Source of the DNA: a virus
Taxonomy: Duplodnaviria; Heunggongvirae; Uroviricota; Caudoviricetes
Direction: 5' to 3' (one strand)
IMG/VR virus record: IMGVR_UViG_2734482779_000004
Coordinates: 1 to 27,850 of that record
DNA length: 27,850 nt
Part shown: positions 12,747-22,433 of the stretch, piece after piece
How the letters are laid out: every line of letters starts with the position of its first letter
How positions within the stretch are numbered: the first letter of the stretch is position 1
The notes under the pieces: model-generated
Databases searched by the model: none
What the model saw: only the letters and a program-made list of their open reading frames with translations
What the model was told of the DNA's origin: nothing
Made by a program: the position numbers and the translations under genes

Positions 12747-12822
12747 TGGTGCTGGTTAACGGACTTGAACCGCTACCCATTCGCTTACAAGGCGACTGCT
12801 CTACCATTGGAGCTAAACCAGC
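12747..12822 (-). tRNA. tRNA-Thr (anticodon UGU)
   Basis: Hand-folded 76-nt cloverleaf on the minus strand: acceptor GCTGGTT/AACCAGC, D-stem GCTC/GAGC, anticodon loop CTTGTAA, T-arm AGCGG-TTCAAGT-CCGTT, discriminator A plus encoded CCA. Confidence 0.75.
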
Positions 12823-12827
12823 ATGTT

Positions 12828-12902
12828 TGGCGGGACAGCGTGGGCTCGAACCACGATAAGAAGGTTAACAGCCTTCCGTAATGACCTTTATACGACTGAC
12901 CC
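12828..12902 (-). tRNA. tRNA-Asn (anticodon GUU), slightly atypical
   Basis: 75-nt cloverleaf: anticodon arm GAAGG-CTGTTAA-CCTTC (loop identical to E. coli tRNA-Asn), T-arm CGTGG-TTCGAGC-CCACG, encoded CCA. The acceptor stem has one T-T mismatch and the D-stem is weak. Confidence 0.55.
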
Positions 12903-18233: not shown

Positions 18234-19076
18234 TCACTCCTGCGCCCATGAAGGCATTTCAGTTTGTCCGTAATCTTTGGTGGCAAAGTTTTCCTGCATA
18301 GCTCGATGCTGCGGCCTCGGTTGAGATTTCCCCTTTGGAGTCTTGGGCTCAAAAATCCCCTGCCAACCACTGGCGATGCTCTGGTTTATAATTTCTTCAG
18401 GTGTATATCCCTTCTCCAGACTTCTGCTTAGAACGTTGATAGCCTGAGTGACACTTTGCTTAGACTTGATCGACTTACCTATCTCCTTGCGATAGGTAAC
18501 CCACGACAACCATGTTTCTGCTGATAACCAATCAGGCAACTCTGTTTCTAGCGGGTCGAACTTCTGAGAAACTTTTTTGGGGGATATAGGGGGTTTATTA
18601 ATATTTTCTTTTGTCTTTAAAGAATGTCTTTTGTGTGTCTCTAACTTCGAGACATTGAGTGTCTCTAATTTGGAGACATTTTTTGTCTCTAACTTCGAGA
18701 CAAAGTTGCTAACTTGGAGACACTTGCTGAATTGCCACGCAGATACCTCACTGTTTACACCGATTTGATTTCCATCCATAAACAGGCAATTCATTGAAAT
18801 CAGTTCTTTTTTAGCCTTGTTAACATTCTGCCTTGACAGTCCTGTTAACTGAGCAATTTGCTCATCGGCTATTCGATCTGTTTTCTTATTGAATCCATAT
18901 GTTTTCCGGACGTAGGCCAGCATAACTTTCAACTGGCGAGCGGTTAAATCGGCACTTGCGATAGCTTCCAGCAGCTCGTTAGCGAATCTGGTGTAACCAT
19001 CATCGATATCAGCCACTCTTCGCTCCTGTTCAACAGGTTCACTCTTCGGCAGGTAAAATACTTCAGCAAGGCTCAT
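18234..19076 (-). CDS. O: Replication initiator, lambda O-like
   Basis: N-terminal region (ERRVADIDDGYTRFANELLEAIASADLTARQLKVMLAYVRKTYGFNK) resembles the lambda O DNA-binding domain. The track ORF starts at a TTG (19109); ATG at 19076 has GGAGG 7 nt upstream. Contains the ori iterons. Confidence 0.8.
   Translation of the reverse strand: MSLAEVFYLPKSEPVEQERRVADIDDGYTRFANELLEAIASADLTARQLKVMLAYVRKTYGFNKKTDRIADEQIAQLTGLSRQNVNKAKKELISMNCLFMDGNQIGVNSEVSAWQFSKCLQVSNFVSKLETKNVSKLETLNVSKLETHKRHSLKTKENINKPPISPKKVSQKFDPLETELPDWLSAETWLSWVTYRKEIGKSIKSKQSVTQAINVLSRSLEKGYTPEEIINQSIASGWQGIFEPKTPKGKSQPRPQHRAMQENFATKDYGQTEMPSWAQE
18590..18721. repeat. Replication origin inside the O gene: four 17-bp iterons plus an adjacent AT-rich region
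   Basis: GTCTCTAACTTCGAGAC (18636-18652), GTCTCTAATTTGGAGAC (18661-18677), GTCTCTAACTTCGAGAC (18685-18701), degenerate GTTGCTAACTTGGAGAC (18705-18721), spaced 20-25 bp, with AT-rich 18590-18635. Same layout as lambda ori. Confidence 0.7.
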
Positions 19077-19707
19077 TTCCAACCTCCGCATCAAAGCATT
19101 GGGCTTCAAGAGACTTAACCATCACCACACTGCCATCTGTATTAATAACTATCGATGAGTTATATTTGCTTATCAGTTGCTTCGCGTAATCAATTCCGGC
19201 GCGAATAAGGAAATTTTTCACCGCAGGAAGATGACCAACTACACTACCCAGACCTTGCTCTATAAGCTCCTCATTAAGATCAAGCTCATTTTCATGGCGA
19301 AAAGAAATGAATGAGTCGTAAATTGCGTATTCTGCCGTCTCGCCATTTCTTTCAGGGCCAACCAGCGCCCTTATTTCATTTAGAGATTCAGAAAGATCAT
19401 TATCTTCAAGCTTGAAAAACTCTCGATTATCACTAAGCCTCTCTTTTGCAAAGGCTTTATGAATGAGTTTTTCATCTGATGCGGGATTATTTGAATGAAA
19501 GGCTGCTATCACCTTAAATGGCTTAGGAACGCCAGTAGAGGCTGAAATTTCTTTAGCCCTAACTTCTGGTGAATGCTTAGTCATCCCAATCTTATAAATT
19601 CCTGGCATGCACTCATTCGAAAGCACATAAACAAAGCCATTTGATTTAAAATCATCTGGAACCTTCATGCTCTTCAGAACCTGGAATTTGTCATTTTCGT
19701 ATGTCAT
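19063..19707 (-). CDS. T5orf172 / GIY-YIG-like domain protein inserted between cII and O
   Basis: 214 aa, ATG with AGGAG 6 nt upstream. N-terminal FVYVLSNECMPGIYKIGMTKHSPEVRAKEI...FKVIAAFHS fits the T5orf172/MUG113 pattern; the C-terminal ~100 aa are not recognised. Confidence 0.6.
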   Translation of the reverse strand: MTYENDKFQVLKSMKVPDDFKSNGFVYVLSNECMPGIYKIGMTKHSPEVRAKEISASTGVPKPFKVIAAFHSNNPASDEKLIHKAFAKERLSDNREFFKLEDNDLSESLNEIRALVGPERNGETAEYAIYDSFISFRHENELDLNEELIEQGLGSVVGHLPAVKNFLIRAGIDYAKQLISKYNSSIVINTDGSVVMVKSLEAQCFDAEVGNEPC

Positions 19708-19717
19708 AATTACTCCT

Positions 19718-19796
19718 GTGGATTGATCCAGTAATGACCTCAGAACTCCATCTGGATTTGATCAGAACGCTCGGTTGCCGCCGGGCGTTTTTTATT
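19718..19796 (+). ncRNA. oop: oop antisense RNA with its terminator
   Basis: Plus strand GTGGATTGATCCAGTAATGACCTCAGAACTCCATCTGGATTTGATCAGAACGCTCGGTTGCCGCCGGGCGTTTTTTATT is near-identical by recall to lambda oop. Overlaps the cII 3' end antisense; a CATAAT -10 lies at 19705-19710. Confidence 0.7.
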
Positions 19797-20033
19797 GGTG
19801 AGAATCGAAGCAACTTGTCGTGCCAATCGAGCCATATCGTCGTCAACGACGCCCCATTCAAGAACAGCAAGCAGCATTGAGAACTTTGGAATCCAGTCCC
19901 TCTTCCACCTGCTGATCTGCGACTTATCAACTCCCACAGCTTCCGCTGTCTTCTCAGTTCCAAGCATTGCGATTTTGTTAAGCAACGCACTCTCGATTCG
20001 TAGAGCCTCGTTGCGTTTGTTTGCACGAACCAT
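19740..20033 (-). CDS. cII: Transcriptional activator cII
   Basis: 97 aa from the internal ATG, MVRANKRNEALRIESALLNKIAMLGTEKTAEAVGVDKSQISRWKRDWIPKFSMLLAVLEWGVVDDDMARLARQVASILTNKKRPAATERSDQIQMEF, essentially lambda cII. The track's 117-aa ORF is a 5' over-extension. Confidence 0.95.
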   Translation of the reverse strand: MVRANKRNEALRIESALLNKIAMLGTEKTAEAVGVDKSQISRWKRDWIPKFSMLLAVLEWGVVDDDMARLARQVASILTNKKRPAATERSDQIQMEF

Positions 20034-20112
20034 ATGTAAGTATTTCCTTAGATAACAATTGATTGAATGTATGCAAATAAATGCATACACCATAGGTGTG
20101 GTTTAATTTGAT

Positions 20113-20144
20113 GCCCTTTTTCAGGGCTGGGATGTGTAAGAGCG
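20113..20144 (-). promoter_or_regulatory. nutR (boxA and boxB)
   Basis: Minus strand reads CGCTCTTA (boxA) then GCCCTGAAAAAGGGC (boxB hairpin), matching lambda nutR, between cro and cII. Confidence 0.8.
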
Positions 20145-20152
20145 GGAATGTC

Positions 20153-20368
20153 TTAAGCGGCTTTGTGTTCCGGCGGGAACACGTCATCAAGACTGACTTT
20201 TGCGCCTAACTTGTTTAGGCACTCAACAAGAGCACGGCATGTTTTAAGGTCTGGGAAGCGACGACCAGATTCCCAATGTCCGATAGCTCCCTGTGTGCAT
20301 CCAACTGCCTTAGCAAGTGTTGTTTGAGAGATATTCAGTGACTCTCGATATTTTCGTAGGTTGCTCAT
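20153..20368 (-). CDS. cro: Cro-like repressor (XRE-family HTH), non-lambda immunity
   Basis: 71 aa from the ATG at 20368, which has GGAGGG 4 nt upstream. HTH ISQTTLAKAVGCTQGAIGHWESG. The track's 128-aa ORF is an over-extension. Confidence 0.75.
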   Translation of the reverse strand: MSNLRKYRESLNISQTTLAKAVGCTQGAIGHWESGRRFPDLKTCRALVECLNKLGAKVSLDDVFPPEHKAA

Positions 20369-20394
20369 ATGCCCTCCATAGTAACCATGAAACA

Positions 20395-20468
20395 ATAATA
20401 CGATATGTACTTTTAGAATGCAAACAAAAAATACATCTTGTGCATGGATGGTTTTAGTACAGAGCGTA
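20395..20468. promoter_or_regulatory. OR region: pR and three candidate operator sites
   Basis: Minus strand pR: -35 TTGCAT (20418-20423), 17-bp spacer, -10 TATTAT (20395-20400). Candidate 11-bp TAC-N5-GT sites at 20399-20409, 20432-20442 and 20458-20468, spaced 33 and 26 bp. Confidence 0.45.
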
Positions 20469-20485
20469 ATAATAAGGGTATGAAA

Positions 20486-21139
20486 ATGAAATGGTATGAA
20501 CTGGCTAGATCCAGAATGAAAGAGCTCGGCATAACTCAAGAGAAGTTAGCTGAAGAGCTTGGTATGACGCAGGGTGGAATTGGTCACTGGTTGCGCGGAT
20601 CTCGTCATCCATCTCTTGACGAGATTGGTGTGGTGTTTAAATACCTTGGTATTGATAACGTCTCATTCAACCACGACGGTACATTTTCACCTGTTGGCGA
20701 ATACTCATCTGCCCCCGTTAAAAAACAATATGAGTACCCTGTTTTTTCTCATGTTCAGGCCGGGATGTTCTCGCCTGAGCTTAGAACCTTTACCAAAGGT
20801 GATGCGGAGAGATGGGTCAGCACAACCAAAAAAGCCAGTGATTGTGCGTTCTGGCTTGAAGTTGAAGGTAATTCCATGACCGCGCCAACAGGATCCAAGC
20901 CAAGCTTTCCTGACGGGATGTTAATTCTCGTTGACCCTGAGCAGGCTGTTGAGCCAGGTGATTTCTGCATAGCCAGACTTGGTGGTGACGAGTTTACATT
21001 CAAGAAACTGATCAGGGATAGCGGTCAGGTGTTCCTACAGCCACTAAACCCGCAATATCCAATGATTCCATGCAATGATAGCTGTTCCGTAGTAGGGAAA
21101 GTTATCGCCAGCCAGTGGCCTGAAGAGACATTTAGTTAA
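20486..21139 (+). CDS. cI: CI repressor (HTH plus LexA-like S24 autocleavage domain), non-lambda immunity
   Basis: [26 protein letters not shown]; C-terminal S24-type domain with [10 protein letters not shown] and FTFKKL. Start is ambiguous between ATG 20480 and 20486; 20486 has better SD spacing. Confidence 0.85.
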
Positions 21140-21170
21140 CAGCCTCACCACTCTAAAACACACAACAATA

Positions 21171-21199
21171 ACCCGACCTTAGCGTCGGGTTTTCTTTTT
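21171..21199 (+). terminator. Rho-independent terminator after cI
   Basis: ACCCGAC-CTTAGC-GTCGGGT hairpin followed by TTTCTTTTT, about 30 nt after the cI stop. Confidence 0.6.
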
Positions 21200-21220
21200 C
21201 CAAAATATAAACCCATTAAA

Positions 21221-21293
21221 TACAAAGCGTTATAAAAAACTAATTATATTTAGAACATTTTGTATTGACTCGATAAAGTACAAATCGTACTAT
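21221..21293 (+). promoter_or_regulatory. OL/pL: promoter and three candidate operator sites
   Basis: pL: -35 TTGACT (21265-21270), 17-bp spacer, -10 TACTAT (21288-21293). Repeated 11-mers TACAAAGCGTT (21221-21231), TACAAAATGTT (reverse, 21254-21264) and TACAAATCGTA (21279-21289), spaced 33 and 25 bp. Confidence 0.5.
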
Positions 21294-21332
21294 TTAGCCA
21301 TCGGCAGGACGCACTGACCACCATGAAGGTGA

Positions 21333-21363
21333 CGCTCTTAAAAATTAAGCCCTGAAGAAGGGC
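21333..21363 (+). promoter_or_regulatory. nutL (boxA and boxB)
   Basis: CGCTCTTA (21333-21340) and GCCCTGAAGAAGGGC (21349-21363), matching lambda nutL. Confidence 0.85.
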
Positions 21364-21535
21364 AGCATTCAAAGCAGAAGGCTTTGGGGTGTGGTGAAGG
21401 GTTCATGGATGGGAATATGTCGCACGTAAAGCGGCGAGGCCTGCGGAACTATTGCCGAATTGAAGTCGGCCGAAGCAGGTCGAAATGGGTCTCCCACCTA
21501 CCACACCACCAAAGCTAACTGACAGGAGAATCCAG

Positions 21536-22433
<898 letters not shown>

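Follow-up and report, generated by a model that had tools for sequence, protein, structure and literature searches.

The stretch of 27,850 nucleotides at positions 1 to 27,850 of the IMG/VR virus record IMGVR_UViG_2734482779_000004, referred to here as the window, carries an immunity module whose proteins, operators and positions all match those of VT2-Sakai and the Stx1-converting phages, and which is by homology assigned to that immunity type. The genome backbone is Sf6/HK620/P22-like, the term lambda-like being limited to the early regulatory flanks, and the window carries the lambda map in right-to-left order. The module very probably forms a functional lysis-lysogeny switch, of lambdoid CI/Cro build and VT2-Sakai/Stx1 type, set in a P22/Sf6/HK620-like prophage or phage equipped with the N, nut and cII of lambda. 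Such a feature is already described and common. The original prediction, made from the letters of the window, had claimed a non-lambda immunity module with matching operator triplets at the left and right operator regions (OL and OR); its core, the specificity and the match between OR and OL, is a correct reading of an ordinary immunity type, whereas the implied novelty, the size given to the sites and the notion of a clean cassette did not survive.

The two regulatory genes diverge from an intergenic region of 111 bp, cro on the minus strand and cI on the plus strand:

cro, 20153..20368, minus strand: 71 amino acids, all-HTH_3 type, recognition helix CTQGAIGHW (Pfam HTH_3, 1.4e-12)
cI, 20480-21139, plus strand: 219 amino acids, HTH_3 plus Peptidase_S24 (Pfam)
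cI N-terminal domain and linker, 20480..20727, plus strand: residues 1-83, non-lambda, helix MTQGGIGHW (Pfam HTH_3, 8.3e-11)
cI C-terminal domain, 20728..21139, plus strand: residues 84-219, lambda-like (Peptidase_S24, 8.9e-29)

The helix-turn-helix (HTH) motif that was said to be shared by the two proteins and foreign to lambda is indeed so, with MTQGGIGHW in CI and CTQGAIGHW in Cro as compared with MGQSGVGAL in lambda. Cro aligns with the N-terminal domain of CI at 35% identity (E 5e-13) and is, on this similarity, a paralogue of that domain. CI itself is, as far as its sequence tells, a natural chimera of an HTH-bearing N-terminal domain of its own and a C-terminal domain that is essentially lambda's: over residues 84-218 it shares 98% identity with residues 102-236 of lambda CI, the few substitutions being apparently conservative, and the N-terminal domain aligns weakly with lambda CI. 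Ala94-Gly95, Ser132 and Lys175, which occupy invariant columns, align with the cleavage site and the dyad of the lambda protein. For the CI N-terminal domain, a PDB sequence search returned no close solved structure (best E 1e-4), and for Cro it returned one match, the 'lambda repressor-like protein' 28tn. The parts of a lambdoid switch are found together at this locus, namely a predicted repressor with an N-terminal HTH and an S24 C-terminal domain of the self-cleaving type, a small HTH Cro that diverges from it across a control region of about 100 bp with back-to-back PR and PRM, and three dyad-symmetric operators at OR with a matching set at OL that overlaps PL.

The assignment to the VT2-Sakai type is carried by proteins and DNA alike. 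CI is 96.8% identical to its VT2-Sakai counterpart (96.8-97.2% over VT2-Sakai and the PA-series) and 100% identical to that of phage Dewey, with an identical helix, TQGGIGHW; Cro is 99% identical to the Cro of the Stx1-converting phage. The DNA from the cro stop codon to the cI stop codon is 93% identical to the Stx1-converting phage AP005153, Stx2 phage II, Nil2, 2851 and the PA-series, and a 1.2-kb cassette that includes OL (20100-21320) is more than 99% identical over its full length to vB_EcoP-720R6, 683R2, Dewey and Louie. Of 5426 complete E. coli genomes, 768 carry the cassette at a coverage of at least 80%. GenBank entry AP005153 (2003) annotates the same six sites that are discussed below as 17-bp putative operators, together with PR, PRM and PL, and these sites are also the oligonucleotides VT2-SA OR1-3 and OL1-3 in Table S1 of PMC10742460; the novelty implied for them is not borne out, as they were both annotated and published. 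Compared with the AP005153/VT2-SA operators, the window has 0-2 differences per 17-mer and none at half-site positions -7 to -2, the differences to relatives being confined to central or outer bases. Both PMC10742460 and PMC4587872 credit the operators to Fattah et al. (2000), a work that, in the account given by PMC10742460, described a CI with a lambda-like C-terminal and a dissimilar N-terminal region. In the VT2-Sakai sequence NC_000902, the cI gene has TAG where the window (about 20568-20578) and the relatives have CAG, the codon for the Gln of TQGGIGHW, and for this reason it is annotated as two fragments; either the isolate has an amber mutation or the sequence contains an error.

The operators and promoters of the module are as follows, the first score of each operator referring to a 15-bp consensus that is defined below:

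OR1, 20396..20412: 17-mer TAATACGATATGTACTT, 11-mer TACGATATGTA at 20399-20409; 12/12; position of an AP005153 'putative operator' and the published VT2-SA OR1
OR2, 20429..20445: 17-mer AAATACATCTTGTGCAT, 11-mer TACATCTTGTG at 20432-20442; 10/12; AP005153 operator, VT2-SA OR2
OR3, 20455..20471: 17-mer TAGTACAGAGCGTAATA, 11-mer TACAGAGCGTA at 20458-20468; 11/12; overlaps the PRM -10; AP005153 annotation, VT2-SA OR3
OL3, 21218..21234: 17-mer AAATACAAAGCGTTATA, 11-mer TACAAAGCGTT at 21221-21231; 10/12; AP005153 OL operator, VT2-SA OL3
OL2, 21251..21267: 17-mer TAGAACATTTTGTATTG, 11-mer AACATTTTGTA at 21254-21264; 11/12; abuts or overlaps the PL -35; AP005153, VT2-SA OL2
OL1, 21276..21292: 17-mer AAGTACAAATCGTACTA, 11-mer TACAAATCGTA at 21279-21289; 12/12; AP005153, VT2-SA OL1
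PR, 20395..20423, minus strand: -35 TTGCAT at 20423-20418, 17-bp spacer, -10 TATTAT at 20400-20395, putative transcript start (+1) near 20388
PRM (putative), 20445..20473, plus strand: weak -35 TGGATG at 20445-20450, 17-bp spacer, -10 AATAAT at 20468-20473; AP005153 annotates a maintenance promoter here
PL, 21265..21293, plus strand: TTGACT-17-TACTAT (promoter scan), +1 at about 21300

Six 11-mers of the TAC-N5-GT(A) type had been predicted, and all of them are found at their positions; 11 bp is not, however, the size of the sites. Alignment of the 12 half-sites yields a 15-bp palindrome, ARTACR-N3-YGTAYT, as the unit, with A(-4), C(-3) and a purine at -2 in all 12 and A(-7) in 11 of them, so that the sites are palindromes of 15-17 bp. 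This distinction matters for the one reading under which the module would have no operators at all, which takes the 11-mers for fortuitous matches in the AT-rich DNA of promoters, or for parts of -10 and -35 elements, and not for repressor sites. OR and OL are AT-rich (33% and 24% G+C), several of the sites overlap promoter hexamers, and the window as a whole shows no enrichment of the bare 11-mer: exact TACN5GTA occurs 4 times against 2.74 expected, a count reached by 24 of 100 shuffles, and with at most one mismatch there are 91 matches against 75.9 expected, which is no clear enrichment. Three of the four exact matches do fall in OR or OL, and with the extended motif the picture changes. 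A score of at least 11/12 is attained at only 4 positions in 27,850 bp, all four within OR and OL, and a score of at least 10/12 at 13 positions, 6 of which are the six sites. Three sites of at least 10/12 per region of about 110 bp were reached by 0 of 5000 shuffles for OR and 1 of 5000 for OL, these being local dinucleotide shuffles of the same AT-rich regions. The motif search that the original prediction had named as a check hence came out against the bare 11-mer, which is no more frequent than chance window-wide, and in favour of the extended motif, which is locally significant. The sites are moreover dyad-symmetric, a property that promoter hexamers do not need, and their arms coincide with invariant columns among phages of different hosts, as described next. 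We regard chance or promoter-element matches as a highly improbable explanation of the six sites and retain the view that they are repressor operators. A fourth candidate between OL2 and OL3, AAAACTAATTATATT, centred at 21243, scores 9/12 in the window and was not counted, as its right arm is lost; its VT2-Sakai counterpart, AAAACGCCCCGTTTT, scores 10/12.

The comparative set consisted of six phages: the window, the Stx1 phage, 2B8, phi458, Salmonella NM-3 and Proteus Pm34, the CI proteins of the last two being 68% and 57% identical to that of the window, with the related helices TKGAVSHW and SKGAVGHW, respectively. In the intergenic region, the columns invariant in all six are the operator arms, the PRM -10 (ATAAT) and the tandem ATGAAAATG at the start of cI; whether the phage is from E. 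coli, Salmonella or Proteus, the arms stay constant, and it is the spacers that change. The first cI ATG is 16-17 bp away from OR3 in six of six phages and 43 bp away from OR2 in the four that belong to E. coli. For NM-3 and Pm34, hand reading and alignment put OR2 at the equivalent place, but under the threshold of the pattern scan, which in NM-3 flags another site, 51 bp from the ATG. The distance from OR1 to OR2 is 32-34 bp in all six (read by hand for NM-3 and Pm34, taken from the scan for the other four), being 33 bp in the window and phi458 and 32 bp in the Stx1 phage and 2B8; OR2 and OR3 are 26-27 bp apart in the relatives, and OL1 and OL2 25 bp. The OL of VT2-Sakai keeps the same three sites although the intervening DNA differs.

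Each lytic promoter has one site inside its 17-bp spacer, as foreseen, OR1 lying in the spacer of PR, and OL1 in the spacer of PL and over the start of its -10. For PR, the promoter scan reports TTTGCA with an 18-bp spacer; as the TTG at 20423-20421 is conserved in the six phages, the TTGCAT version with a 17-bp spacer is favoured. With +1 taken as about 20388 for PR, 20480 for PRM and 21300 for PL, the operator centres fall at -16, -49 and -75 of PR (OR1, OR2, OR3), at -76, -43 and -17 of PRM (same order) and at -16, -41 and -74 of PL (OL1, OL2, OL3). Along the plus strand, successive sites start 33 and then 26 bp apart at OR, as against 33 and then 25 bp at OL, and in these coordinates the claim of the same 33 then 25-26 bp spacing on both sides is right. 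Relative to the lytic promoters the order is swapped, because PR and PL diverge: OR reads O1-33-O2-26-O3 and OL reads O1-25-O2-33-O3. O1 and O3 are at equal positions for both lytic promoters (spans of 59 and 58 bp), and the middle operator is offset by 8 bp; it occupies the lambda position at OL (-41) and, at OR, the lambda position with respect to PRM (-43, in lambda -42), at the cost of the 33-bp gap to OR1. The idea that OL is a direct duplicate of OR was ruled out, non-operator identity at that offset being 13/56, as in random sequence; the best of 400 OR/OL offsets and orientations is the mirror alignment, which lays OR1/PR onto OL1/PL. The tandem ATGAAAATG occupies 20480-20488, its first ATG 7 nt after the PRM -10 and its second (20486) 7 nt after AGGG. 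The PRM transcript probably starts with the A of the first ATG (20480) and would then be leaderless, as in lambda, and AGGG is a possible Shine-Dalgarno sequence for the PRE transcript at the second; CI may have two N-termini depending on the promoter, PRM or PRE, from which the message starts.

The module is embedded between the following flanking elements:

cII, 19740..20033, minus strand: lambda-like flank outside the immunity-specific cassette, assigned by DNA alignment with lambda, about 97% identical through the gene
nutR, 20113..20144, minus strand: boxB GCCCTGAAAAAGGGC at 20113-20127 and boxA CGCTCTTAC at 20136-20144, equal to lambda (alignment and lambda nutR annotation)
intrinsic terminator of the cI (PRM/PRE) transcript, 21170..21199, plus strand: hairpin at 21170-21191 followed by a T-run (terminator scan)
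nutL, 21333..21363, plus strand: boxA CGCTCTTAA and boxB GCCCTGAAGAAGGGC, equal to the lambda flank (alignment and lambda annotation)
N antiterminator, 21536..21859, plus strand: lambda-like flank, Pfam N36 1.5e-26, DNA near-identical to lambda N

Alignment with lambda upholds the lambda-like character claimed for cII, nutR, nutL and N. Identity with lambda extends from cII through nutR and ends at 20152, just beyond the cro stop codon; the match is taken up again at the PL transcript start (about 21296) and covers nutL and, past an interruption described below, N. Between these limits the DNA is lambda-like again from about 20728 to the cI stop codon, with a junction inside the cI linker just upstream of the Ala-Gly cleavage site, and the terminator 3' of cI is homologous to the lambda terminator that follows rexB and has a single compensatory change, G:C to A:T, in its stem. 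As the lambda-like C-terminal domain and terminator interrupt it, the immunity-specific non-lambda DNA is split, in these alignments, into two separate patches, one with cro, OR and the cI N-terminal domain (20153 to about 20727) and one with OL and PL (about 21200-21295). These patches have to vary together, as in fact they do. Mosaic replacement, as proposed for the cassette, fits the non-lambda specificity and the lambda-like flanks; the replacement is not a clean one, since a junction falls within cI. The terminator of the cI operon is kept in lambda (about 1300-1330 of the locus), 933W (tM, about 1416-1437), VT2-Sakai and the window despite differing upstream cargo. Between cI and OL, lambda has rexAB, 933W has stk and others, and VT2-Sakai, 2B8, phi458 and NM-3 have various open reading frames; in the window this slot is empty, and OL and OR are separated by only 822 bp. 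The list of open reading frames contains neither rexA nor rexB between cI and OL, and together with the terminator scan it confirms that rexAB is absent and that a terminator directly follows cI. The cII box of PRE, TTGC-N6-TTGC at 20011-20024 on the plus strand, lies within the cII gene, and the lambda oop-terminator hairpin (19764-19791, plus strand) is kept unchanged; with both of them retained, the lambda establishment circuit feeds a non-lambda repressor gene. A further non-lambda patch of about 110 bp, at 21393-21503, lies in the N leader from nutL to the N ribosome-binding site, with lambda-identical DNA on both sides; the equivalent stretch of lambda contains the RNase III site of its N leader.

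From the anatomy, domains, homology, conservation and motif enrichment that are observed we infer the CI binding, affinity order, activation, cooperativity and looping of a switch that would work as follows. CI dimers would bind the six 15-bp palindromes ARTACR-N3-YGTAYT; at OR1 (-16 of PR) and at OL1 and OL2 (-16 and -41 of PL) CI would occlude the lytic promoters, and at OR2, which is at -43 of PRM much as in lambda, it would activate the weak PRM. OR3, at -17 of PRM, would provide negative autoregulation at high CI and would be the likely first target of Cro, whose recognition helix nearly equals that of CI. Consensus match predicts intrinsic affinities in the order O1 (12/12) > OR3 and OL2 (11/12) > OR2 and OL3 (10/12), which, by analogy, would be the pattern of lambda, where a weak OR2 needs help. 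The lambda-type C-terminal domain would give CI dimerisation, higher-order contacts and RecA-stimulated self-cleavage, the last of these, at Ala94-Gly95 by Ser132 and Lys175, leading to prophage induction. Establishment would proceed via lambda's own cII and PRE, reading antisense through cro into cI.

Several points weigh against this reading. The 15-bp pattern behind the motif statistics was derived from the same six sites, so that independent support comes from the comparative evidence. The -35 of PRM is poor (3/6), and a consensus promoter scan did not detect PRM. In the literature, no footprint or electrophoretic mobility shift assay with the cognate CI or Cro was found for this immunity type, and the sole binding data on these operators are from lambda CI, with micromolar apparent Kd (PMC10742460). 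The centres of OR1 and OR2 are 33 bp apart (32 in the Stx phages) as opposed to 24 bp in lambda, the pair at 26 bp being OR2-OR3, and lambda-style cooperativity between OR1 and OR2 is therefore not assured. The 933W repressor, finally, which has a similar operator core and spacings of 24 and 32 bp, is reported to bind non-cooperatively (PMC3317979).

How CI would cooperate can be weighed on the same data. Lambda-like cooperativity between OR1 and OR2, which at 33 bp are 3.1 turns apart, possibly aided by an 822-bp OL-OR loop, is somewhat more likely than the alternatives. One of these is a logic as in 933W, in which the sites are bound independently according to intrinsic affinity, or else a cooperativity that acts on OR2-OR3 (26 bp) and OL1-OL2 (25 bp). 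The spacings conserved in the comparative set (OR1-OR2 at 32-34 bp throughout, OR2-OR3 at 26-27 bp, OL1-OL2 at 25 bp) would suit it, as would 933W itself, whose operators share the AC-N5-GT core and are spaced at 24/32 bp, and whose repressor reportedly binds without cooperativity (PMC3317979). The 933W CI, on the other hand, has only 20% identity and a C-terminal domain of another kind, whereas the C-terminal domain found here is 98% that of lambda, which is established to mediate pairwise and octameric cooperativity (summarised in PMC8951638); furthermore, OR2 is the weakest consensus match at OR (10/12), and in lambda such weakness is compensated by cooperativity. We consider a 933W-like logic possible but less than probable, and prefer the lambda-like scheme. 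More speculatively still, the combination of a lambda C-terminal domain with a non-lambda geometry may run a different cooperativity scheme, in which OR1 is bound alone or via the 0.8-kb OL-OR loop and adjacent contacts are made on OR2-OR3; mixed oligomers of this CI and lambda CI may arise as well. If this is true, the module would be a natural spacing variant with which the reach of lambda-type C-terminal-domain contacts could be probed, and the mixed oligomers would explain a cross-immunity reported by Fattah et al. In either case, the pairing of a lambda C-terminal domain with non-lambda operator spacing offers a ready test of the spacing rules of CI cooperativity.

The same C-terminal domain bears on whether the module is truly heteroimmune to lambda. 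According to PMC10742460, Fattah et al. (2000) saw cross-immunity between VT2-Sakai and lambda, and in PMC10742460 itself lambda CI is reported to shift all six VT2-Sakai operators, with apparent Kd values of 3.7-6.4 uM; together with the 98% identity of the CI C-terminal domains, this would be compatible with a module that is at least partly lambda-immune, through mixed CI oligomers or weak cross-binding. Yet such micromolar binding is 10-30 times weaker than that of lambda CI to its own OR1 and OL1 in the same assay and is near non-specific, the operators are unlike the TATCACCGCCAGTGGTA-type sites of lambda, and the recognition helices differ. We judge lambda immunity, even partial, to be unlikely, and hold to a heteroimmune module of the VT2-Sakai type. 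The prophage is predicted to be homoimmune with VT2-Sakai-type Stx phages, which bears on superinfection and on the acquisition of Stx phages.

Some neighbouring features may be mentioned. Between cII and the replication gene there is a gene for a 214-amino-acid T5orf172/MUG113 (GIY-YIG-like) protein (19066-19707, minus strand), where in lambda cII is directly followed by O; phage Dewey has an HNH endonuclease in this slot, and the two occurrences suggest a hotspot for homing-endonuclease-like genes. N is followed directly by an open reading frame of 167 amino acids (21855-22355, minus strand; phrog_1244) that runs antisense to the PL operon; it has no Pfam match and a possibly Cys-rich C-terminus. 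An Rfam search of the window found two tRNAs only, tRNA-Thr(TGT) at 12747-12822 and tRNA-Asn(GTT) at 12828-12902, both on the minus strand in the late region, between a Q-like open reading frame and the lysis genes.

Among known systems, the closest immunity regions are those of VT2-Sakai (Sp5), the Stx1 phage, Stx2-II, Nil2, 2851 and the PA-series ('PST1'), and those of the non-Stx phages Dewey, Louie, vB_EcoP-720R6/683R2 and phi458. In VT2-Sakai-type phages, the positions of PR, PRM and PL and the junction to the lambda-like C-terminal domain are as in the window. The Stx phages differ in that they have 1.4-2 kb of extra open reading frames and a lambda-like spacer between cI and OL, and in that their N and cII are of the HK97/HK022 type whereas the window has the N, nut and cII of lambda.

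With lambda, the module has in common the tripartite OR and OL, the divergent PR and PRM, the CI C-terminal domain (98% over residues 84-218), the homologous terminator after the cI operon and the identical flanks (nutR, cII/PRE, the PL +1, nutL and N). Operator placement is alike too: the lytic promoters have O1 at -16/-17, PRM has O2 at -42/-43, and PL has OL2 at -41. The differences lie in the CI N-terminal domain, the recognition helix, the operators and rexAB, which only lambda has. The 17-bp lambda operators of the TATCACCGCCAGTGGTA and TATCACCGC types bear no recognisable likeness to the sites in the window, and the spacings differ as well: OR1-OR2 is 33 bp in the window and 24 bp in lambda, OL2-OL3 is 33 and 20 bp, and OL is 0.8 and 2.4 kb from OR. 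Lambda Cro has a different fold from Cro proteins of the HTH_3 type. In helix and operators the module does not conform to lambda immunity and in the C-terminal domain it does; taken together, the comparison indicates that it is not lambda immunity despite the lambda C-terminal domain.

The operators of 933W, a system studied by the Koudelka and Friedman laboratories, are 15 bp long with invariant A4 and C5 and have the same (T/A)AC-N5-GT(A/T) core, 933W OR1, CGTACTTTCAGTACG, fitting TAC-N5-GTA exactly. Unequal operator spacing (24 and 32 bp) and a helix frame of G-x-(I/V)-x-x-W are further points of likeness, but the long gap is between OR2 and OR3 in 933W and between OR1 and OR2 in the window. 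In 933W there are two OL sites, position 6 is a pyrimidine where the window has a purine (half-site -2), and CI, with its different C-terminal domain, is 20% identical. On this CI identity and this base preference, the module is not 933W immunity despite the similar operator cores. The 434 and P22 immunity regions resemble the module in that Cro is homologous to the N-terminal domain of the repressor, both being all-helical HTH domains directed at the same operators; their recognition helices and operator sequences are unrelated to those of the window, and CI is 32-37% identical to 434 cI and P22 C2.

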